Notes under the pieces: model-generated
The model's database searches: none
Told to the model about the DNA's origin: nothing
Seen by the model: only the letters and a program-made list of their open reading frames with translations
IMG/VR virus record: IMGVR_UViG_3300044740_000006
Location: 1 to 37,141 of that record
Origin: a virus
Taxonomy: Duplodnaviria > Caudoviricetes
Length of the DNA: 37,141 bases
Strand: one strand, 5' to 3'
Shown here: positions 2,431 to 34,779 of the stretch, piece after piece
Layout: each line of letters begins with the position of its first letter
Position numbering within the stretch: position 1 is the first letter of the stretch
Program-made: the position numbers and the translations under genes

Positions 2431-4378
2431 CTCCGATCGAAGCCCCCACTAGGCAAGTCTGGATCATCATCTCGCTCGAAATCTCGAAAATACGGTCCAG
2501 GCCACGATTCCGGCGAGTGGATCCGATACGTCTCCACATGACCCGATAGGCCGTTTCGCCGGTAGCTCCGGAAGATGACTGCATTTCATTCGACCAGTTA
2601 TGACCGCCATCGTCCGACCATTTCAGGATGACGGGACTGGAAGTCGGCGAGGCCGCTACAACCAATATTTGGGTCGCTAGGGAGGAAAATCCTAGCCAAG
2701 TACCCGGATTTAGGGTAACGCCACCGGTGTTGTATCCAGTGATGCCATAGCGATGTACCGGTACCGGTGAGTAAGGCGCGTTGTAGTAAACACCGCCCCC
2801 CTGGACCGTATCCGAAGACATATAGGCGCCAAACGAAACAGCCGGACCTTGAGTTATGAACTGCTTGAGCTGGGCGCCATTGAAGGCATATTGAGGCTCT
2901 ACCTCGACAAAGGCACCAAATGCATTCGTAGTCGCTGAACCCGTGTAATTCAGGCTGATGAAGCCCGTATTGTCTACGGTAATCTGAAGCGGGAATGTGT
3001 TGGCACCATAGGTGCCGGTGAAACTTTGAGAGCTGTTATATCCCATCGCATACCGATAGACATTAGAACCTAGCGTGATAACCACATTGCATGCACCAAG
3101 GGCGAAAGGATCGGCCTGATTGGTGATTTTGGTGGCCGTTCCTACCGCCAGGCCGGTTTGCATATCTACCTTGAGTGATTGCAGTCGTACAGGTTCCTGC
3201 ATGGGCTTCTTCAATGCCCTCCACCTCCGCATCCACCGCTTAGGATTCGACGGCGGTGTCGTCGCCAGATCATTTGTGGGATACGTAAGATCAAGCACAG
3301 AAAGCCGCTGATTCGTCGAAGAACCGACCACATGCTGTTTGTTGAAGAAGGCATAGCAGGACGGGTCCCATCGGTTGTAAGACCCATTGATGAATTCACC
3401 TCGCTCATGCCATAGACCGATGGTCATGTCATAGACCCATGTGGCATTGCCAGATGGGAAAGTCAGTACATAAAACACATGACCGGCTTGCGTGTAGCAG
3501 AAACCAATCGCATCAGCGATACCAATGGAACTCATAGCCAGGTAACTTTGAATCTGATACTCGATGGCATGCGTTGAAATGCGTTGTTCCGAGTAGCCAT
3601 TATTGACGTAAACCTGAAGGGAACCTTCATCCGACTGGCCTAGCCAAAAGATGTGGTCTTCGCTGGTAGCTACCGAGAAGGGCGCGACGCACCCTACATT
3701 CACATACGCACCGTCCATGCGTTGAAAGGCGAACCCATTAAGACCCGCGTTATTCCAAATCTCAATGGCATTTTCTTTCAGTACCCAAAGCTGACGAAAA
3801 AGCGTAAAGATCGCCTGAATATTGGTTGCATTCGAATCAGCGCTGGAAAAGTTGAGTGGGTCCCAGGTCGTCAAGTCGTTGAGGTTGGACTGATAGAACT
3901 GGTTCGTTCCGGCAATCCCTACGATGCCGAATCCATCCTGTTCGCAGGCGATCAATGGGAAATTAGGAATGGTCGTGATCTGTGCCCAAGCGCTCCCGCT
4001 CCATGACCATCCCTGGAAGCCATCGAAAACGGCGTACTGTCTTCCGTTGTCGATGATCGAGACAGGTCCCGATGCGGTATTCAAGTGACCAAGTGGGGTC
4101 ACTACGCCGTTGATATCTATTTGGACGACTTGGTTTCCGAATACGGCTACAAGCTTCTTGTTGGAGGTCTTATGGATACCTCGCATCGGTCCAGATACCG
4201 CGCCTGAACCGCTATTGGTGAGGACTTGTAGAAGCTTCTGGCCGGGTATGGAGTAGAAACCGCCCACCTGCTTACCCTGTTTCGTCTCGACAACTTCAGG
4301 GTACAGGTTCATGCATCGATCATTGGCGAGATTCGATGAGAAGGATTGGTAGGTACCACCTAGGAAAGGCGTTTCCAC
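2423..4378 (-). CDS. Tail hub / packaged-DNA stabilisation protein, P22 gp10-like
   Basis: CMNLYPE, RISTHAIE, YTQAGHVFYVLTFPSGNATWVYD..WHER and LKWSDDGGHNWSNE motifs; follows gp4-like gene. Confidence 0.85.
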   Translation of the reverse strand: METPFLGGTYQSFSSNLANDRCMNLYPEVVETKQGKQVGGFYSIPGQKLLQVLTNSGSGAVSGPMRGIHKTSNKKLVAVFGNQVVQIDINGVVTPLGHLNTASGPVSIIDNGRQYAVFDGFQGWSWSGSAWAQITTIPNFPLIACEQDGFGIVGIAGTNQFYQSNLNDLTTWDPLNFSSADSNATNIQAIFTLFRQLWVLKENAIEIWNNAGLNGFAFQRMDGAYVNVGCVAPFSVATSEDHIFWLGQSDEGSLQVYVNNGYSEQRISTHAIEYQIQSYLAMSSIGIADAIGFCYTQAGHVFYVLTFPSGNATWVYDMTIGLWHERGEFINGSYNRWDPSCYAFFNKQHVVGSSTNQRLSVLDLTYPTNDLATTPPSNPKRWMRRWRALKKPMQEPVRLQSLKVDMQTGLAVGTATKITNQADPFALGACNVVITLGSNVYRYAMGYNSSQSFTGTYGANTFPLQITVDNTGFISLNYTGSATTNAFGAFVEVEPQYAFNGAQLKQFITQGPAVSFGAYMSSDTVQGGGVYYNAPYSPVPVHRYGITGYNTGGVTLNPGTWLGFSSLATQILVVAASPTSSPVILKWSDDGGHNWSNEMQSSSGATGETAYRVMWRRIGSTRRNRGLDRIFEISSEMMIQTCLVGASIGDG

Positions 4379-5114: not shown

Positions 5115-5405
5115 CTATTTCTCCATGATGAAGAGAACATCCATTTCGCACATCGCGAGAAGCGTCTCGCCGTTATGCTGAAACGGTTGCTGTGCGTACT
5201 TGCCGAACATGATCTGATCGCCTTCCTTAACTTGCATCGGTTGGCGAGATCCATCGTCATTTTTGCGTCCAGGACCGATGGAAACGACCGTACCGGCCAT
5301 CGGCTTCTCTTCCTCGAGCTGGACCAGTACCAGTCCCCAGGACGTCAATGCTTCGGCCGGGAAGGGCTTGACGATGATGCGGTTATCGAGCGGTTGGATG
5401 CCCAT
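5115..5405 (-). CDS. groES: Co-chaperonin GroES (Cpn10), copy 1
   Basis: IQPLDNRIIVK...GLVL...EKP..GTVVSIGPGRKNDDGSRQPMQVKEGDQIMFGKY...E.DVL. Confidence 0.92.
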   Translation of the reverse strand: MGIQPLDNRIIVKPFPAEALTSWGLVLVQLEEEKPMAGTVVSIGPGRKNDDGSRQPMQVKEGDQIMFGKYAQQPFQHNGETLLAMCEMDVLFIMEK

Positions 5406-12048: not shown

Positions 12049-12321
12049 TTAGGCGATGATGGCGATTACGTCGTCCTCGGTCATGACCAGCAAATCCTGG
12101 CCATCCACCTTGACTTCTGTACCTGACATCTTACGGAAAATCACACGATTTCCCACTGCCACATCATGGACGTCATGACCGATGGCCAGGACCGTACCCT
12201 CCGGCTTCAGCTCATTGCGGTCGTTGGTCTCCTTCAGAGCCAATAGGATGCCACTCTCGGTCTTCGTCAGGCGATCATCACGCTTTACCACCAGACGGTT
12301 ATAGATGGGCTTCAGGTTCAT
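12049..12321 (-). CDS. groES: Co-chaperonin GroES (Cpn10), copy 2, lacking roof hairpin
   Basis: MNLKPIYNRLVVKR...KTESGILL...EGTVLAIG...VAVGNRVIFRK.SGTEVKVDGQDLLVMTEDDVIAI; GGAG RBS before ATG at 12321. Confidence 0.9.
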   Translation of the reverse strand: MNLKPIYNRLVVKRDDRLTKTESGILLALKETNDRNELKPEGTVLAIGHDVHDVAVGNRVIFRKMSGTEVKVDGQDLLVMTEDDVIAIIA

Positions 12322-12453
12322 GCAGAAGGCTCCGTAGGAATTGGGTGAGCAGGCTTCGTGTCGTGATCCAGCCAATGAAGCAGGCCATGTCCGTGCGGGC
12401 GTTGTAGTCCATCACGTAAGACATATGGCCGAAGGTTTTAATACCCGATTCGT

Positions 12454-16008: not shown

Positions 16009-17313
16009 TCACTCCTGGTAGGGATTGGATGAAGGTGGCTTACGTCCGAAGTTACCGAAGCCTTGCTGACGTTGTTCAACTTCGACGTAATCGCGTGGAA
16101 GGAATCGCATGTGTGCGTAGTCCGCATCAAGCGCAATGCTTCCGGTTTCTCCGTTGCGTTGCTTGTCCAACAGCAAGACTAGCTCGTTGCGCTTTTGCTC
16201 TTTGGGACGCCACAGAAACATCACGACATCAGCGTCCTGTTCGATGGATCCACCGCCGCGAAGTTCTGCGAGCGTAGGACGTTTTCCATCAGCATCACGA
16301 TTGAGTTGGCTCAGGCATAGAAGCGGGACATTGAGTTCTTTCGCTAGCCGCTTGAGCGCTCCCGTGACGATCTGGATGGCTTCCGTGGTGGTTGGTGCTT
16401 TCGGTAGCGTGATGAGCGTGAGATAGTCGATGACGATCAGCCCTAAGCCCGATGTTGCATGCACTTGGCGAGCCCGTGCAGAGATCGCCTCTACAGTGAG
16501 CGCGGGTGTTTGGTCGATCTGGATTGGCAGTGCGTTGATCTCTGCGCTTGCTTCGAATAGCCGGCGAAAATCGTCGTTGTTGAGAAGCTTCGGCCGGCGA
16601 AGACCTGTTGCATTGACGCATGCTACGTGCGCTTGCACACGGTCCGTTAGCTGTGTTCCGGTCATCTCCATCGAGAACACGATCGTATGCACTTTGTGCC
16701 GTGCCGCATTGATGGCGATCTGCATCGCCTTGGCAGTCTTGCCGACGGATGGACGTGCAGCTAGCACGATGAGATCACCAGGCTGCAGACCATCCGTGAG
16801 ATCGTCCAACTCCGGCAAGCCTGTGGGGATACCAGTGAGTTCCTGATCTGCATTGACGCGCCGTTGAAGCTCTACCGTGGACTCACGAAGGTACTCGCGA
16901 ATGTGCTTGACGCTACCAGCGTGTCTCGGTGCACATGCCGCCAGGATGCGCTGTGCTTCGACGAGAGCGTCAGGCCCGGAAAGCTGGGCAATCTGTCGGC
17001 CGGCGATCTGGATGCGTCGTGCTTGCGCTTGCTGCACGACGAGTTCGGCATAGGCTCGAACGTTCGTCGCACGCCAGCCTTCGGAGTTCGCAACATCGAG
17101 TGCGAAGGGGCCAAGAACGCGTGGTTCTAGCTCGGTAATCGTGACGGCATCGAACGCAGAGTTCGTGCGCGCCAGTTCGCGAATCATCGCGTAGAGCTTC
17201 GCTAGGCGACCGTCAGCGAAGTCTTCGGGCACGAGGATGTCGGCAACACGCCAATAGGCTTCCGCGCTGCACAGGCATGCACCCAGCACCGCATGTTCGG
17301 CGTTGAGGCTCAT
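16009..17313 (-). CDS. dnaB: Replicative DNA helicase, DnaB family
   Basis: AEHAVLG, Walker A AARPSVGKT, FSMEM, IVIDYL, LSQLNR, SIEQDADVV, KQRNGETG. Confidence 0.95.
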   Translation of the reverse strand: MSLNAEHAVLGACLCSAEAYWRVADILVPEDFADGRLAKLYAMIRELARTNSAFDAVTITELEPRVLGPFALDVANSEGWRATNVRAYAELVVQQAQARRIQIAGRQIAQLSGPDALVEAQRILAACAPRHAGSVKHIREYLRESTVELQRRVNADQELTGIPTGLPELDDLTDGLQPGDLIVLAARPSVGKTAKAMQIAINAARHKVHTIVFSMEMTGTQLTDRVQAHVACVNATGLRRPKLLNNDDFRRLFEASAEINALPIQIDQTPALTVEAISARARQVHATSGLGLIVIDYLTLITLPKAPTTTEAIQIVTGALKRLAKELNVPLLCLSQLNRDADGKRPTLAELRGGGSIEQDADVVMFLWRPKEQKRNELVLLLDKQRNGETGSIALDADYAHMRFLPRDYVEVEQRQQGFGNFGRKPPSSNPYQE

Positions 17314-18284
17314 GCATCACCCCGCAGACGATCGATAACCTTATCCATCAGCTTGGCGAAGCGTTCTTCCTCCAACAGCACGCCGATGTTCTGTTTCCAC
17401 GCAGGGTTGTTCGGATTAGCGCGATCACCCCGCATCCACTCATCCTGCGCGCACTCGCCGAAGTACGCCGTCCAAAATCCTTCCGGCGAATAGTCCCATC
17501 CCTGCTGTTGGCATACGGCCCTGGCCTGCTTATCCGCAGCTAGGATCCGCTTTTCACGTTTCGGCGTCACGACGTTGACGCGCTGACACCGGGGTAGCTC
17601 GCTATGGTAGGCGTGCAGGACTGCGGTCACGAGCTTGGACGGTTTACGGACCGTTGAGGTCCCCTTGCCAAGATCGTCACCGAGAAGATCGTGCCCGTTC
17701 GGAGCGCTGGGGGATATAGGGGGCTTAGCTCTTTCCTGTTCCTGTTCCTGTTCCTGTTCCTGTTCCTGTTCCTGTTCCTGATTAGGCGAAGCCTTAGCGG
17801 AAGTCTTCCATGAAGGCTTAGGCAAAGCCTTGTCGAAAGCCTTTAAGAAAGACTCCCCAAAATTGTTGCAAATGGTTGATCGCATTGACTTATGCGCTTT
17901 GGCCTTCAAATCGCACTCTGGCAGCACATCCCACTCATGACCCCAAGAAAGCACCACATTTGGACTCTCCGGAAGGTTGTGTTTTAGGGCATTTGGGAGC
18001 CACAAAACACGGGCTTCCCAATCGGCTTCAGCCATGCCTTCACGGAAGACTTCGGCGAAGGCTTGATCGAAGGCTTCCAGCTCCCATCCAAGTTCTTCGG
18101 CCATGCCTGCGCGGCCGGCCCGGAAAAGGCCGGGGATAGGGCTCGTATGCGGGCCAGTGATGAGGAACAGCCAAAGCCCTTTGCCAGACGGTGGAAGGCG
18201 GCTCAAGCGCCGGAACTTGTCATCACCCCATGTGCGAACTTCAACCTTGCGGTAACGGCCTTTCTTTTGCGGTCCATCAGCCAT
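17310..18284 (-). CDS. Phage replication initiator protein
   Basis: Upstream of dnaB; WGDDKFRRLS...LWLFLIT.PH N-terminal domain, (QE)8 linker, C-terminal helicase-loader-like domain; AGGAGGT RBS supports start at 18284. Confidence 0.8.
   Translation of the reverse strand: MADGPQKKGRYRKVEVRTWGDDKFRRLSRLPPSGKGLWLFLITGPHTSPIPGLFRAGRAGMAEELGWELEAFDQAFAEVFREGMAEADWEARVLWLPNALKHNLPESPNVVLSWGHEWDVLPECDLKAKAHKSMRSTICNNFGESFLKAFDKALPKPSWKTSAKASPNQEQEQEQEQEQEQEQERAKPPISPSAPNGHDLLGDDLGKGTSTVRKPSKLVTAVLHAYHSELPRCQRVNVVTPKREKRILAADKQARAVCQQQGWDYSPEGFWTAYFGECAQDEWMRGDRANPNNPAWKQNIGVLLEEERFAKLMDKVIDRLRGDA
17733..17780. repeat. (TTCCTG)8 perfect hexamer repeat encoding (QE)8
   Basis: Read directly. Confidence 0.95.
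17782..17846. repeat. 12-bp-period iteron-like repeats (candidate origin)
   Basis: Minus strand AAGGCTTTCGAC AAGGCTTTGCCT AAGCCTTCATGG AAGACTTCCGCT AAGGCTTCGCCT inside the initiator gene. Confidence 0.6.
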
Positions 18285-18873
18285 GGGCGCACCTCCTGGC
18301 CAATTCCACCAACCACTCAGCAAATGCTTGCGGAGTGTGCTCGCGCTCAGCTTTGCTTACCTCAGGGCGCCAACCTACCATTCCCTTGCGGAGTCGGATT
18401 CCATCCTTTCGTTTAACTCTGGATTGCGCAATGACGTGCGTTCCTTCACCTAAGGTCATGGGAATTGGGGGAAATTCAGAAGGATGAAGGCCGACCACGT
18501 ACAACCAAGTGAGCTTCGTAGCGCGATGCCCCCACCAATGCTGGGAAACAGCGAAAGTAAAGCCACCGTGGACATCAAAATGACCTGGCTTAGGCATATC
18601 ACATACTTTCCACAGCTTCGAGTGGGAGGGATGTTCAAGCACACCGCCACACTTCCGAACCACATGGACGGCCCATATACCCAATTCCTTTTCCCCTCGA
18701 ATTGGCTTCGCAAAGTAATAGAGCTTTCCCCAACCTCGGCATGGGGGATGGGCTACGACTGGAACGCCTCCGCGAAAAGACCGCGCATTCCGATCAAAGT
18801 CATACACGTCACACCCCGCCAACGTCTTGTAAACGCTGTCTCGTCGAGCAAAAAGGATGGCAACGGATTGCAC
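18277..18873 (-). CDS. Short DNA cytosine methyltransferase-like protein
   Basis: AHPPC catalytic motif, VLEHP motif VI-like, K.TWL; canonical FxGxG motif I is degenerate (LFARRDS). Confidence 0.6.
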   Translation of the reverse strand: MQSVAILFARRDSVYKTLAGCDVYDFDRNARSFRGGVPVVAHPPCRGWGKLYYFAKPIRGEKELGIWAVHVVRKCGGVLEHPSHSKLWKVCDMPKPGHFDVHGGFTFAVSQHWWGHRATKLTWLYVVGLHPSEFPPIPMTLGEGTHVIAQSRVKRKDGIRLRKGMVGWRPEVSKAEREHTPQAFAEWLVELARRCAHG

Positions 18874-18905
18874 AGAAGTCCCCTGATTTGTGATCCCTGA
18901 GAAGG

Positions 18906-18968
18906 TGGCATCCCCCGGCCGCAGGGTCGGTTTTCGCCGCAGGGATCAGCTACGGCTAGGGGGTGCCA
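18906..18968 (-). ncRNA. C4 antisense / P4 CI-like structured RNA
   Basis: Nested stems UGGCA-CCCC/GGGG-UGCCA and GCCGUAG/CUGCGGC, apical CGG-CGAAAA-CCG hairpin, unpaired UGAUCCCUG complementary to downstream CAGGGAUCA (18891-18899). Confidence 0.65.
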
Positions 18969-18980
18969 GGTAAAAGGGTA

Positions 18981-19139
18981 TCAGGCAGCAGTATCGACGA
19001 TGACGCCAGGCAAGAACTGGGCGTCTTCCATCATCTGCTCGTACTTGCGCTTAGCCAGGGCCTCGCGGATGCGCTCGACCATCTGAGGCTCGGCGGGAAC
19101 ATAGGGAATTTCGTGGGAATCCGTGGGCGCAGTGTTCAT
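18981..19139 (-). CDS. small hypothetical protein, 52 aa (MNTAPTDSHEIPYVP...)
   Basis: Translated by hand; ATGA overlap with cro stop; GGAG upstream. Confidence 0.55.
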   Translation of the reverse strand: MNTAPTDSHEIPYVPAEPQMVERIREALAKRKYEQMMEDAQFLPGVIVDTAA

Positions 19140-19345
19140 GCAGCTTTCTCCGGCCTGGGCGGTTTGCGGCGCGAATTGGCAAGATTGACCAGCTTCTGGC
19201 CGATGACGAACGATGGATTCATCGCGCCGGCCTCAATCTTGCTGATGGTTCCTTTGGCGACCCCAATATCGGCGGCGATCTGGATGCGTTTCCAGCCGCG
19301 CTCAACGAGGCGTGCAATAGCGATCTGAGGCGTTAGGTTTGTCAT
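19136..19345 (-). CDS. Cro-like XRE helix-turn-helix regulator
   Basis: IQIAADIGVAKGTISKIEAG..NPSF..G..L; 69 aa, no peptidase domain. Confidence 0.85.
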   Translation of the reverse strand: MTNLTPQIAIARLVERGWKRIQIAADIGVAKGTISKIEAGAMNPSFVIGQKLVNLANSRRKPPRPEKAA

Positions 19346-19352
19346 GGGGCGG

Positions 19353-19382
19353 AATATAGGTTTCCTACCCGATTCTTGTCAA
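19353..19382 (-). promoter_or_regulatory. Leftward sigma70 promoter for cro-replication operon (probably leaderless)
   Basis: TTGACA-18 bp-TATATT, 7 nt before cro ATG; no SD. Confidence 0.7.
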
Positions 19383-19429
19383 GCGACAAAAAGTTTCCTG
19401 TAGGGTATTGACAAGATGGTTTCCTATCG
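19357..19429. promoter_or_regulatory. Three GTTTCCT operator-like boxes
   Basis: TAGGTTTCCTA (19357), AAGTTTCCTG (19391), GATGGTTTCCTATC (19415); two lie within promoter spacers. Confidence 0.6.
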
Positions 19430-19436
19430 CTAACTT
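19408..19436 (+). promoter_or_regulatory. Rightward early sigma70 promoter
   Basis: TTGACA-17 bp-TAACTT. Confidence 0.75.
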
Positions 19437-19483
19437 TTGCTCATCGCCAACGGCCACGAACGGCCAACATTGAGGAAACAAAC

Positions 19484-20224
19484 ATGAACGATTTCGCTGT
19501 CTCTGAATCACTGGCCCGCAAAGTGCTGGAAACCGTTGACGCTGGATTGAGTTACGGACTGGGCGAACCCGTGCCAGGAAAAATGTGCGTAGAAGCCGCT
19601 GTGTGCTACGCCATGGGCCTTCCGCATTCTGATCGGCCAACATGCGTCGGCGAAGCCGTTCGCCGCTTCAAAATTAGGCTAAATGACTCTAGATGGTCAT
19701 CCAGAACCGCTCGCGCTAACGGGATGCGAAAACTGGCAATCGCGCAGCTAGGTAGTAACTCGATCAACCAAAGGGCATTTGCCCACATCGTTACAGAACA
19801 AACAATCCGCCAGATTATTCCCATCGCGCTTCGTTCTGCGGCCAAGTGTGTTCCGAGCCATGCCGAAGCGCTGGAGAGAGCAGCTAAATGGTGCGAGCAG
19901 GAAGGGACCGAAGAGGCGACAAGAAATGCTCGTGATGTAGCAAGAGCTGCCGACGACGCCGACGACGCATGCGCAGCCACATACGCCGCTGTGCGCGCAG
20001 TCGCATTCGCCGATGAAGCCAAAACCAAAGCCAAAGACGGATGCGACCTCGCAGCCGCCGACGCAGTCGCCGAGGCCGCATCCTTATCGGCCGAGGCCGC
20101 ATACGCATACGCATCCCGCGATGACGTTCTCAATAAGACCGCCGAAATCGGCTTGCAGGCGCTTATCGAACTCAATTCACCGGGTTGTGAGTACTTGTTT
20201 CTGACTGATGTTAAAGTCGCATAA
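19484..20224 (+). CDS. Ala-rich hypothetical protein, first early gene
   Basis: GAGGA RBS; MCVEAAVCYAMGLPHSDRPTCV...IRLND N-terminal domain, Ala-rich helical C-terminus. Confidence 0.75.
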   Translation: MNDFAVSESLARKVLETVDAGLSYGLGEPVPGKMCVEAAVCYAMGLPHSDRPTCVGEAVRRFKIRLNDSRWSSRTARANGMRKLAIAQLGSNSINQRAFAHIVTEQTIRQIIPIALRSAAKCVPSHAEALERAAKWCEQEGTEEATRNARDVARAADDADDACAATYAAVRAVAFADEAKTKAKDGCDLAAADAVAEAASLSAEAAYAYASRDDVLNKTAEIGLQALIELNSPGCEYLFLTDVKVA

Positions 20225-21049: not shown

Positions 21050-21409
21050 ATGGATATCAACTCTCTCACGATCGGTCAGGCTCGCGAATTGGCTGCACTG
21101 TTCGGTAATGTGGCCGCATCGAAGCCTTCACCTTTCATCGGTAAGTATGTCATCGTCCGCACCTATTCCGCTGGCGTGCATGCTGGTGAATTGGTCAGCC
21201 AGGATGGCGATATCGTCGTGCTCAAGGATTCACGCCGATTGTGGAAATGGAAGGCCACGCAGGGTGTGGCACTTTCCGGCGTAGCGGTGCATGGCATCCA
21301 TCGCCACGAAAGCAAAGTAGACGTCATTGTTCCGGAACATATGTTGCTCGGAACAATTGAGGTCATTCCCACTTCTGACAACGCGAAGGAATCCATCCAT
21401 GGCGCTTAA
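21050..21409 (+). CDS. DUF6948-like phage protein
   Basis: IGKYVIVRTYSAGVHAGEL...LKDSRRLWKW...ALSGVA..G...EVIP. Confidence 0.7.
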   Translation: MDINSLTIGQARELAALFGNVAASKPSPFIGKYVIVRTYSAGVHAGELVSQDGDIVVLKDSRRLWKWKATQGVALSGVAVHGIHRHESKVDVIVPEHMLLGTIEVIPTSDNAKESIHGA

Positions 21410-21674
21410 TCGAAAAATGATCGGTAGTCCTCATCGGACTTTGATCGGGTCCGGGTACGGGTCCGGGGACGGGTCCGGGTCCGGGTCCGGGTCCGGGGAC
21501 GGGTCCGGGGACGGGTACGGGTCCGGGGACGGGTACGGGTCCGGGTCCGGGTCCGGGTCCGGGGACGGGTCCGGGTCCGGGTCCGGGGACGGGTCCGGGT
21601 CCGGGTCCGGGTACGGGTACGGGTCCGGGTACGGGTCCGGGTACGGGTACGGGTCCGGGTACGGGTCCGGCTGA
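21399..21674 (+). CDS. Gly-X (X=S/Y/D) repeat protein, 91 aa
   Basis: AAGGA RBS before ATG at 21399; overlaps DUF6948-like stop; same strand as operon. Confidence 0.65.
   Translation: MALNRKMIGSPHRTLIGSGYGSGDGSGSGSGSGDGSGDGYGSGDGYGSGSGSGSGDGSGSGSGDGSGSGSGYGYGSGYGSGYGYGSGYGSG
21447..21668. repeat. 37 tandem hexamers GGG-TCC/TAC/GAC
   Basis: Read directly. Confidence 0.95.
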
Positions 21675-21745
21675 TTGCCAGCCATAGACCTTCGAATGGA
21701 GGTCTATCACGGGCAATCCGTCTCGAAGCGCAACCGAGAGATACC

Positions 21746-22153
21746 ATGAGCAATGAACACGTACATCCGACCATGCAGCAAGCACTTGGTACCTTGGCCG
21801 GGGCTTGTGCAGCTCACAACGCATCGAAGGCAGTCAGCGCATTGGACCAGGCGCGCGAGATCATCGCTACTGACAAGAAGCGCATCCGGGAGCTTGAATC
21901 AGCGAACGCCAATCTTCGTGCGCACGTGCGGCATCTCAACTCGATCATCGACGACATAGCACCTACTGACTACGCAATGGTTTTGGAAGGCGACATTGAA
22001 GAGACGCCGATTCCGCAGGAAGTGATGATTCCTTCGATGATCGAGCTTATGCGCGACATCGATGTGCGGCTGAAACTCGAAAAGATCGTGGAGCGCAAGT
22101 ACATGCAGTACGTGCGGCGCTTGAACGATGATGCGAAAAGGGGAGAAGAATGA
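21746..22153 (+). CDS. hypothetical coiled-coil protein
   Basis: HVHPTMQQAL N-terminus, heptad region. Confidence 0.65.
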   Translation: MSNEHVHPTMQQALGTLAGACAAHNASKAVSALDQAREIIATDKKRIRELESANANLRAHVRHLNSIIDDIAPTDYAMVLEGDIEETPIPQEVMIPSMIELMRDIDVRLKLEKIVERKYMQYVRRLNDDAKRGEE

Positions 22154-32372: not shown

Positions 32373-33448
32373 GGAGCAAGCCATTCGATGATGCAAAGTC
32401 CAGGTCCGGCATTTCCCCCAGTACTGTTGTATTTTCCAGCGCCTCCGCAACCAGGACCGAATGCGTCAATGATGCCTACGCCAACAGTTCCCCAAGATCC
32501 TCCGCCAGCCGCATCGATGCCAGCCGACTGATTAACAGTTGTTCCACCTCCACCGCCATTCCATGTGAAGGTAAGTCCGGACGCTGATCCGCCTGCGCCT
32601 GGTGTGCCGCCATTACCAGCACCACCACCACCACCGTTTGCTGTAATGCCTAATGCGGCGACCGTAGAGGCTGTACCAGCGGTTCCTGCATTACCAGCAG
32701 CGCCACCTGATCCAGGCGTTCCTATAACAATAGCCAAGGATGTGTTCGACCCTAGCGATATCCATCCTTCAGCATAACCGCCGCCGCCACCACCTGAACC
32801 TACATTACCCGCTGATCCGCCGCCGCCGCCGCCGCCAGGACCCCAAATGCGGAATTTGGCCCATTTGACATTCGTTGGAACGTTCCATGTACCAGAATTG
32901 GCAAATACCACCATCTGACCGGCTTTATTGATCTCATTGCCAACAAAGGCAGTTGTGGCAATCTTGGTGCTGTAATCTCCAGCGCTTGGAGTGGGCACAG
33001 TCGGATTGTTGGAAAAGGCATTCGTTATAGCAGTCTGAACAAATTGCGTATTAGCAATGTCAGTGCTGCTATCGCCGACCGTTGCAGTAGGAGCGGTTGG
33101 TGTTCCTGTGAAGGCTGGGCTATTCAATGGCGCAAGGCCATTGATCATATTTCCAAAGCCGACACTTCCAACCGTCCAATAGGGATTGGTAGGAGGATCG
33201 GTATCCGTCGATGGACAGAACCAGAAGTCGTATTCCAGATTCGAATCCAGATAGCACACACACTCGCCGTTCGCATCTAAGATGATCGGATTGGTGTTGG
33301 GCGTACCGGTCGAGGTCGAGTATGTAGCCTGCTTGGTCGTAGTACCTGCCGCATAGGTAAAGAGCTTTGCACCCGATGCCACATTGGTCGTTCCGGGAAT
33401 AAAGAACTTGAGCTTGGGAGGTACGCTGGGGGTGAGGGGGCCAGTCAT
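32369..33448 (-). CDS. Tailspike/fibre adaptor with head-binding N-terminus and Gly-rich C-terminal domain
   Basis: GAKLFTYAAGTTT.QATY...NTNPIILDANGE, APLNSPAFTGTPTAPT, IATTAFV, F..SGTW.VP...GGGGGG. Confidence 0.8.
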   Translation of the reverse strand: MTGPLTPSVPPKLKFFIPGTTNVASGAKLFTYAAGTTTKQATYSTSTGTPNTNPIILDANGECVCYLDSNLEYDFWFCPSTDTDPPTNPYWTVGSVGFGNMINGLAPLNSPAFTGTPTAPTATVGDSSTDIANTQFVQTAITNAFSNNPTVPTPSAGDYSTKIATTAFVGNEINKAGQMVVFANSGTWNVPTNVKWAKFRIWGPGGGGGGGSAGNVGSGGGGGGYAEGWISLGSNTSLAIVIGTPGSGGAAGNAGTAGTASTVAALGITANGGGGGAGNGGTPGAGGSASGLTFTWNGGGGGTTVNQSAGIDAAGGGSWGTVGVGIIDAFGPGCGGAGKYNSTGGNAGPGLCIIEWLAP

Positions 33449-34779
33449 AGGTCATACTCCATCGAGGTTGCGAATCCCATTTTATGGAGTTCCGGTAAAC
33501 ATTCTTCCAAATTGTCGCCAATGTCGTTGCGAACCATCATGTTCGAGACATTTACCTTCTTGATCACTTTATCTACCGCTTCCTTGGCCTGTTTGACGGT
33601 TTCACCCATACCCGTAGCGACAAGTACATAGTTGCCGGATGTGGTGAAAATATCGGCTTCTACGACTTTTCCATCTTTCATGGAAGGTCCTTTCTCGATC
33701 TGCATGCAGACAGGGTGTATACGATCCCATCTATTCGGTATCTCAATGGGCAAGTCCATGCATTCGGCTTCGTCGCAATCATCACGCGGAAATGGTGGAA
33801 TCGCCACGACTTCACCGATACCAACGTCATAAGAAACCTTTAGGGTGTCATGACCTTCTAAGAGGTCACGCATCCATTCCACGGGATCGCCCTTATGCAG
33901 GTCAGAGGCAATCCAGTCGTAAGGCCATCCTGGCCGGCATGTGAATTCAAGGGGGTAGATCTTTCCACTTCCTTTTTCAATGATGCAATTGAGGTCGATA
34001 TCGCCAATATGACCGATCTCGATCAAGTGTTTGACGAGTTCAGGCGTGAACAATTCATCGGCCATCTTTTCATCGCGGCAATACTGGATGACCGTACCCA
34101 TCTCTCCGGTGTTGGGTCCGTAATTTCCTGGCATGAGCTTTTTGTGCTCGAAATTGATGTTCCACTTATTCGGCAACGGACCTTCCGGACCAAACCAACA
34201 AGAAACACCCATTTCGTATCCATCGATTTTCTCCTGCAGCATTACCTGACCTTTAGGATTCAAACCGAGCTTCATCCATCTTTGGATGCGGCCAACCAAA
34301 TCAGCTGGCGTTTTAGCCACATATGAAAGGCTCTTGTCCTCGTTATCGCCCATGGTCTTGAATACATAGGCTTGATCAGATTTACGCGCAAAATTCTCAG
34401 CCTCTTTAAGAGAATTGAAGGTGTGATAAGCTGGCACTAGAAGTCCCATCTTTTCAAGCAATCGCATGCCTTTTGCGCGCTTGATCTCTAGATCTGCGGC
34501 GGCTTGTGAAGGCGCGAAGATGGGATATCCATGCTTTTTCCACTCGTCCATATCCTTGATGAACATCGCGTTGGACGATAGCCAGATGAGTCCATCCTTG
34601 GCCCATTTCATAGAAGGTTTCCAATCGTCGATATGCTGGATACCTGGAAATCCTTTGCCATCCTTGAAGCTATTTCCCTCTTTATCCCGGTTATACCAAC
34701 GCACGTCATGGCCCGCCTCGACACAGCGCCAAGCGAAATCCAGGCCGCAACGGTCTGTATCGATCAGGAGAACGCGCAT
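33445..34779 (-). CDS. PurD (phosphoribosylamine-glycine ligase)-like ATP-grasp enzyme
   Basis: PIFAPSQAAADLEIKR, YVFK, LQEKIDGYEMGV, EHKKLMPGNYGPNTGEMG, LEFTCRPG, TSGNYVL.ATG.GETV..A; full-length 444 aa, divergent N-terminal substrate domain. Confidence 0.85.
   Translation of the reverse strand: MRVLLIDTDRCGLDFAWRCVEAGHDVRWYNRDKEGNSFKDGKGFPGIQHIDDWKPSMKWAKDGLIWLSSNAMFIKDMDEWKKHGYPIFAPSQAAADLEIKRAKGMRLLEKMGLLVPAYHTFNSLKEAENFARKSDQAYVFKTMGDNEDKSLSYVAKTPADLVGRIQRWMKLGLNPKGQVMLQEKIDGYEMGVSCWFGPEGPLPNKWNINFEHKKLMPGNYGPNTGEMGTVIQYCRDEKMADELFTPELVKHLIEIGHIGDIDLNCIIEKGSGKIYPLEFTCRPGWPYDWIASDLHKGDPVEWMRDLLEGHDTLKVSYDVGIGEVVAIPPFPRDDCDEAECMDLPIEIPNRWDRIHPVCMQIEKGPSMKDGKVVEADIFTTSGNYVLVATGMGETVKQAKEAVDKVIKKVNVSNMMVRNDIGDNLEECLPELHKMGFATSMEYDL

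Follow-up and report, generated by a model that had tools for sequence, protein, structure and literature searches.

RNAs of the int-alpA family take their name from a location between an integrase gene and an alpA gene. The motif reportedly originates in the Weinberg 2017 survey. Rfam types the family (RF02996) as 'Gene; sRNA', and in the literature it was found as a table entry without a test or as a term for gene order, with no study of the RNA itself. The accessible main text of PMC5737381 does not name int-alpA, and our literature search found no functional study, though the supplement of the 2017 survey may mention a loop-target match or the palindrome described below. The window analyzed here is the whole 37,141-nt record of a tailed phage (IMGVR_UViG_3300044740_000006, completeness rating 100%). 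A first-pass annotation, made from the letters alone, had flagged a 107-nt gap on its minus strand as a C4/P4-CI-like antisense RNA. By sequence and comparison, the gap instead holds a divergent int-alpA RNA that likely gates a replication gene cluster, and a concrete mechanism can be offered for a catalogued RNA family for which no functional study was found.

Gene setting and family membership

A PHROG scan of 72 window proteins (103 non-nested ORFs of at least 60 aa are listed) found portal, capsid, head-closure, tail and lysis genes. The minus strand carries, in order, a sigma-70-type promoter, a Cro-like gene, a 52-aa ORF, the flagged gap, a 198-aa gene, a replication initiator gene and DnaB (Table 1). 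The candidate promoter likely drives the transcript in which the RNA lies. Its -10 box stops 8 nt short of the ATG at 19345, so the cro mRNA probably has no leader. The 52-aa ORF is also found in two relatives, L431 (85%) and, in diverged form, L433. While the RNA had been placed directly ahead of the replication operon, the next gene is the 198-aa phrog_12600 gene, and the initiator and DnaB follow with overlapping stops and starts. The 198-aa gene begins with GTG at 18873 and overlaps the initiator start by 8 nt, so translational coupling of all three genes is a reasonable inference. The 198-aa protein has no match in Pfam, NCBIfam or PDB; compared with DNA_methylase clusters, it reached an Atlas feature score of 0.90 and a TM of 0.66, below the naming bar, a weak lead that it may be akin to DNA cytosine methylase-like proteins.

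The Cro-like gene is the sole HTH regulator among the 72 scanned proteins. Neither an integrase nor CI was found among them, many of which have no match at all, and AlpA was not found among the window proteins scanned against PHROGs. The description of a phage lacking CI thus stands for these 72 proteins, many without a PHROG match, so an unrecognized repressor may be present; the genome does carry the Cro-like gene and its candidate operators. The latter are copies of AGGAAAC, four of the genome's six, in a divergent promoter region at 19353-19479 (19360, 19393 and 19419 on the minus strand, 19473 on the plus strand). Elsewhere, this 37-kb phage encodes two GroES-like co-chaperonins (5115-5405 and 12049-12375, minus strand; PHROG 3188, E 5.6e-22 and 9.6e-20). 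A Gly-Ser/Asp-Gly-Tyr repeat ORF at 21327-21774 holds long frames open on both strands, and a similar repeat of other make-up occurs in L062. A 444-aa ORF among the virion genes (33445-34779, minus strand) has no PHROG match; judged by its start, it may encode an ATP-grasp enzyme.

Table 1. Features of the RNA locus and neighboring genes in the window. Pairing partners and loops are given from RNA 5' to 3'.
Feature	Position	Strand	Evidence or remark
DnaB helicase	16009..17313	-	start overlaps initiator stop
Replication initiator/loader, O-like, DnaD-like	17310..18284	-	PHROG 1701, E 8e-20; PHROG 345, E 8e-14
First gene 3' of the RNA, 198 aa, phrog_12600	18277..18873	-	PHROG match from the first residue, E 5.9e-79
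T2, second CAGGG(G) target, ribosome-binding site of next gene	18880..18885	-	loop-target matching
T1, first of two CAGGG targets, immediately 3' of P1	18895..18899	-	loop-target matching; likely decoy
Int-alpA-type three-way-junction core	18906..18968	-	RF02996 match, own model, covariation in 76 relatives, ortholog L433
P1	18968-18959 paired with 18916-18906, A18911 bulged	-	part of junction core
Linkers	UA 18958-18957; GAAAA 18935-18931	-	part of junction core
P2 arm, 7-bp stem, 7-nt loop CUGAUCC (18949-18943)	18936..18956	-	palindrome GAUC in loop
P3 arm, 3-bp stem, loop ACCCUG (18927-18922)	18919..18930	-	loop-target matching across members; L433, L439, L440
52-aa ORF	18981..19139	-	stop 12 nt before P1
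Cro-like HTH gene, 69 aa	19136..19345	-	Pfam HTH_3, E 6.5e-8; PHROG 6831
Candidate sigma-70-type promoter TTGACA-18-TATATT	19353..19382	-	consensus match, 11/12

No Rfam family matched in the window at gathering cut-offs. The int-alpA model RF02996 aligned to the RNA over its full length with 28.7 bits (E 0.0013), the gathering cut-off being 35.8, and a genome search with RF02996 at E ≤ 10 gave 0 matches, whereas 7 of 14 control genomes were positive. Our own model, built from 76 diverse members with the lineage of the window phage left out, gave the window RNA 29.5 bits (E 1.6e-7 over 79 kb, E-values being rough). The junction core C-UAG ... C-GAAAA with three stems is present. The flanking integrase/alpA context was not found in the window; L059 has it, and alpA lies downstream in L019. 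Core and independent model argue that the window RNA is a divergent int-alpA member, even with its score below the cut-off and its different context. Of 20 loci submitted to Rfam, 17 pass the cut-off. Fourteen subfamily and similar loci score just below it at 25-35.7 bits, a range that also takes in many phage long-arm members. The family thus extends beyond the Rfam cut-off, with a phage subfamily often ahead of DUF1376-type genes.

The C4/P4-CI assignment did not hold. The suggested check with C4 models gave no match at E ≤ 10 in 18500-19600, although a C4 in L043 scores 70.5 bits with this library, and our own int-alpA model does not match the P4 CI locus. L043 itself carries this C4 RNA and an int-alpA RNA (62.1 bits) in one element, about 600 nt apart (2464-2530 and 3138-3229, minus strand). 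A blastn search against GenBank phages returned a single 23-nt match and nothing else. A hammerhead ribozyme, whose core motif is CUGAnGA, was rejected, the motif being absent by eye and no Rfam match found, as was read-through or frameshifting past the upstream UGA, by eye out of frame with the 198-aa gene.

A junction kept by its relatives

Relatives were collected from four pattern scans (at least 69, 120, 119 and 120 loci), which when parsed for the junction gave 139 matches, 132 of them distinct. Visual inspection excluded six of the distinct loci, which were false or duplicated, so that 126 members remained; most loci from two of the scans (119 and 120) were not members. On the covariation check, in an alignment of 76 relatives, 12 of 16 junction pairs showed double changes and 95.9% of cells were paired, as in 0 of 500 shuffles in a test that ignores kinship among members, and slid registers paired only 34-44% of cells. 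The invariant junction letters were fixed by the search patterns and so prove nothing.

The nested stems first described for this RNA are indeed the computed minimum (-31.5 kcal/mol, long-stem pair probability about 0.8), but the fold kept by relatives is the three-way junction only, which at -31.0 kcal/mol lies just 0.5 kcal/mol higher. The nested fold is possible in the window because CCCUGCGGC is present twice. P3 of the family fold has a pair probability of just 0.06 in the window energy model. The 65-nt core folds better than shuffled sequences (z -3.94; 1 of 200 equally good), and the core with flanks (131 nt) folds no better (z -0.70). Comparison supports the three-way junction as the fold of the window RNA, despite the nested computed minimum. 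In one contig G18914U disrupts a P1 pair, and one contig shows 24 differences in the upstream ORF next to an unaltered core. No terminator was called after P1 in the window.

L433, a phage with a 95% identical DnaB, has the RNA element at the same syntenic place. It alters all stems, the P3 loop and both targets in step (P3 loop AUGCCCC, targets GGGGCA and GGGGU), retains the P1 bulge and carries an 8-nt P2 palindrome. In L434 and L435, whose DnaB is 32-34% identical, the syntenic place holds no such element. Another relative, represented by a contig in 3 of 4 runs, has a core identical up to 18903 followed by a different 3' segment, which again holds a pair of CAGGG sites, followed 7 nt later by a start codon. 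Of 4 further runs, 1 produced a contig, which was of the L431 type; searches through the 198-aa protein gave one partial locus, and searches through a 68-aa gene the same three contigs.

The gene behind the RNA marks a swap point. In a comparison of the window with L431, L432 and L433, three unrelated genes were seen after the same core, with breakpoints directly after T2 (18879) or directly after P1 (18903). The cro gene likewise varies among relatives. In L006, L028, L032, L040, L043 and L049 a -10-like box (TATAAT, CATAAT or CATAAC) lies, by eye, a few bases 5' of P1, which suggests that transcription begins with the RNA in these members; the window copy, by contrast, is operon-internal. 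L025, L082 and L149 have a good core and no clear T1, T2 or start codon on the 3' side; they are possibly orphaned copies.

Targets of the P3 loop and the palindrome in P2

Two of the earlier pairings were correct to the letter. UGAUCCCUG (18948-18940) complements CAGGGAUCA (18899-18891) exactly, and CCCUG matches CAGGGG at 18885-18880 in the Shine-Dalgarno region, 6 nt before the GTG. Which loop does the targeting was another matter: UGAUCCCUG had been proposed, and complementarity and covariation assign the role to ACCCUG of P3, which would pair with both T1 and T2. The 9-nt pairing UGAUCCCUG/CAGGGAUCA involves the P2 loop together with some of the P2 stem. Among 34 long-arm members it is present in 2, the window and a near-twin, L015, the other 32 reaching 6 nt or less; it shrinks to 6 nt in the swapped same-core relative and is absent in L433. 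We rejected it as a conserved mechanism for this want of conservation; it may tune the window lineage. The extension of T1 by AUCA to 18891 is lineage-specific.

Across 119 members, kinship uncorrected, each P3 loop pairs better with its own targets than with permuted ones, both at T1 (-7.34 versus -4.95 kcal/mol, z -17) and at T2 (-8.71 versus -7.46 kcal/mol, z -7.8). In a matrix of 11 loop classes, the own class was best for T2 in seven and for T1 in three, the T1 stretches compared being of unequal length. A model-fitted alignment of 90 members, built from a structure without loop-target pairs, gave 63 double-change cells versus 40.9 for T1 (0 of 500 shuffles, again ignoring kinship), with a register slid by +1 scoring as high as the chosen one (0.245 versus 0.233). 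For T2 the same alignment gave a weak excess of double-change cells (39 versus 32.4; 44 of 500) and a covariation score reached in 0 of 500. A start codon stands at a narrow distance 3' of the element in 119 of 126 members. More telling than these counts are L433, the swapped relative and a prospective pattern that fixed no loop letters. That pattern yielded four loci of two kinds (L439 and L440-442, of which L439, L440 and L442 were read), with new P3 loops, each matched by 7 nt at T1 and by 5-6 nt beside the Shine-Dalgarno sequence, and with palindromic P2 loops. The earlier finding of no upstream target copy was confirmed, as no CAGGG or AGGG occurs in the 531 nt upstream of the window RNA, and across the family upstream loop matches are at chance (4.04 versus 4.12 nt permuted).

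Short P2 loops read GACG in 83 of 126 members, and CG at positions 3-4 is missing from 5 of 90. A GACG loop dimerizes through two base pairs in a retrovirus, according to the accessible text of PMC7357161. The long-arm P2 loops are palindromic in 34 of 34 cases (GAUC in 29, AAUU in 5). One pattern scan had fixed GAUC, yet contributed only two new members. A subfamily scan that fixed no loop letters returned at least 120 loci, and an estimated 1,200 or so viral stretches match its pattern; 60 of 120 were aligned and sorted by eye into 54 members, 4 noise and 2 uncertain. The P2 loops of the 54 members were CAUG (19), AGCU (14), GAUC (8), AAUU (7), UGCA (1) and UGCU (5), so that a full 4-nt palindrome is present in 49, the UGCU loops being imperfect. 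In the 60-row alignment, standard pairs were counted at one palindrome column pair in 49 of 59 rows and at the other in 54 of 59, both with three pair types (0 of 500 shuffles, kinship likewise ignored), far above registers slid by one or by +2/+3. These pairs enclose 2 and 0 nt, which makes them impossible within one strand, and pairing between two molecules is the simplest reading; the comparison points to the P2 loop as a kissing-dimer contact. As functional RNA homodimers are described as rare (PMC7357161, accessible text), a palindrome kept through four sequences should surprise a specialist.

By eye, about 38 of the 54 subfamily members precede a gene starting M-H-Y/F. All three such genes that were checked encode DUF1376, which is presumably a phage replication initiator and is also found in the position ahead of DnaB in L435. 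In many subfamily members P1 is followed by a U-rich run.

A possible dose-dependent brake

We read the window element as a divergent leader RNA of the int-alpA family, likely a dose-dependent brake that slows translation of the cluster ending in initiator and DnaB, and give this reading an even chance, about 0.5. The fold, the two P3-loop targets, the palindromic P2 loop and the position on which it builds come from sequence and comparison; the steps that follow are more conditional. On a new transcript the P3 loop would be captured by T1, which is made first, leaving T2 free, so that the first gene is translated and, via the stop/start overlaps, the initiator and DnaB after it. Less firmly, a stable core without T1 might accumulate, through termination at the U-rich run that many members have after P1 or from decaying mRNA trimmed to P1. 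Such a short core could dock on full-length transcripts by P2-P2 kissing and place its free P3 loop on T2, blocking ribosomes in trans, again a weaker step. Output of initiator and helicase would then drop as the RNA builds up.

In a rival arrangement, the P3 loop alternates between T1 and T2 within one molecule, and the choice depends on a ribosome that terminates at the 52-aa ORF, 12 nt upstream, or on a protein recognizing P2. The loop has both targets within 40 nt, the upstream stop region can pair with T1 in the computed fold, and the doubled CCCUGCGGC yields two near-equal folds in the window. This purely cis switch is nevertheless rather unlikely in our estimation, as it leaves the P2 palindrome through four sequences unexplained, a protein being more likely to fix letters, and as the alternative fold of the window is missing from L433. 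The sign could also be the opposite, dimer or loop pairing activating translation by opening a start-region hairpin, much as the short form of IsrK does on the long form (PMC4825925, accessible text). In many members T2 seems, by eye, to lie in the loop of a small hairpin reaching the start codon. That hairpin is weak in the window (-3.0 kcal/mol), and the swapped relative, whose T1 and T2 are separated by 1 nt, lacks it; moreover, T2 is the Shine-Dalgarno sequence itself in most members, so pairing should block it, and activation appears somewhat less probable still than the cis switch.

Low odds also go to the view that the element is a structural relic or mRNA stabilizer that travels with the intergenic region and gates nothing in this phage. 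Its short P3 stem, the competing fold and the one disruptive variant would suit such a relic; the unchanged core beside the altered upstream ORF, the retention of T1 and T2 before three different downstream genes and the preservation of every feature by compensatory change in L433 would not. Marginally less credible again is a C4/P4-CI-type immunity RNA keeping a prophage quiet in place of CI. The three stems, the loop matching a ribosome-binding site and the failure to find CI fit that idea, as do the many family members that lie in integrated elements with integrase on one side and alpA on the other (2 examples checked). Against it stand the missing C4 model match, the want of an upstream target in the window or above chance in the family, the single targeting loop where C4 has two (PMC5320573, accessible text) and a genome rated 100% complete in which no integrase was found. 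With neither integrase nor CI among the 72 proteins and a Cro-like gene present, the immunity or repressor-substitute role first proposed is unsupported, while the broader idea of a structured RNA whose loop matches the ribosome-binding site at the head of a replication cluster was, on sequence evidence, right in kind.

A wider generalization of the brake can be offered only tentatively, namely that int-alpA RNAs are widespread self-recognizing counters, in which a palindromic loop finds other copies and an address loop shuts a ribosome-binding site, metering the initiator without a protein or a separate antisense gene. Were this so, phages might sense how many genome copies are present, or co-infection by kin that share their loop codes, and if the dimer model is true, the two loop codes would be natural orthogonal translation switches.

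Compared with typical int-alpA RNAs, the window RNA shares the P1-UA-P2-GAAAA-P3 junction, the C-rich P3 loop and the AGGG tail, and both occur in phages, int-alpA also in integrated elements. It differs in scoring below the cut-off, in its long P2 with a palindromic 7-nt loop, in its 3-bp P3 and in lying inside a cro-to-replication operon rather than between integrase and alpA. The Rfam structure of int-alpA has no loop-target pairs, and its model ends before T2. Retroviral kissing loops (the MoMuSV GACG tetraloop and palindromic DIS loops; PMC7357161 and PMC516450, accessible text) offer the same GACG or palindromic dimer contact, but they serve genome packaging, and the resemblance is one of motif, not homology. 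IsrK of Gifsy-1 is similar in that its short leader form sets translation by acting in trans on the long one (PMC4825925, accessible text, where a kissing loop is not mentioned for IsrK), as is proposed for the window RNA; the Rfam IsrK model has no match in the window, and IsrK activates, whereas the window RNA is proposed as a brake. P1/P7 C4 and P4 CI (RF01695) share three stems, a loop over the ribosome-binding site and a second target copy (PMC5320573 and PMC4825925, accessible text). They have another junction sequence and two distinct targeting segments (a' and b') instead of one loop, and their second target copy lies upstream (seqA) rather than downstream (T1); the window RNA differs further in its palindromic P2 and in a setting where no lysogeny genes were found. 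C4-type RNAs are also cut by RNase P to a stable form of about 77 nt and give immunity or maintain lysogeny. The proposed brake would thus repeat, with different building blocks, the logic of P4 CI and P1 C4, in which the loop of a structured RNA covers a ribosome-binding site in trans and the target exists in a second copy.
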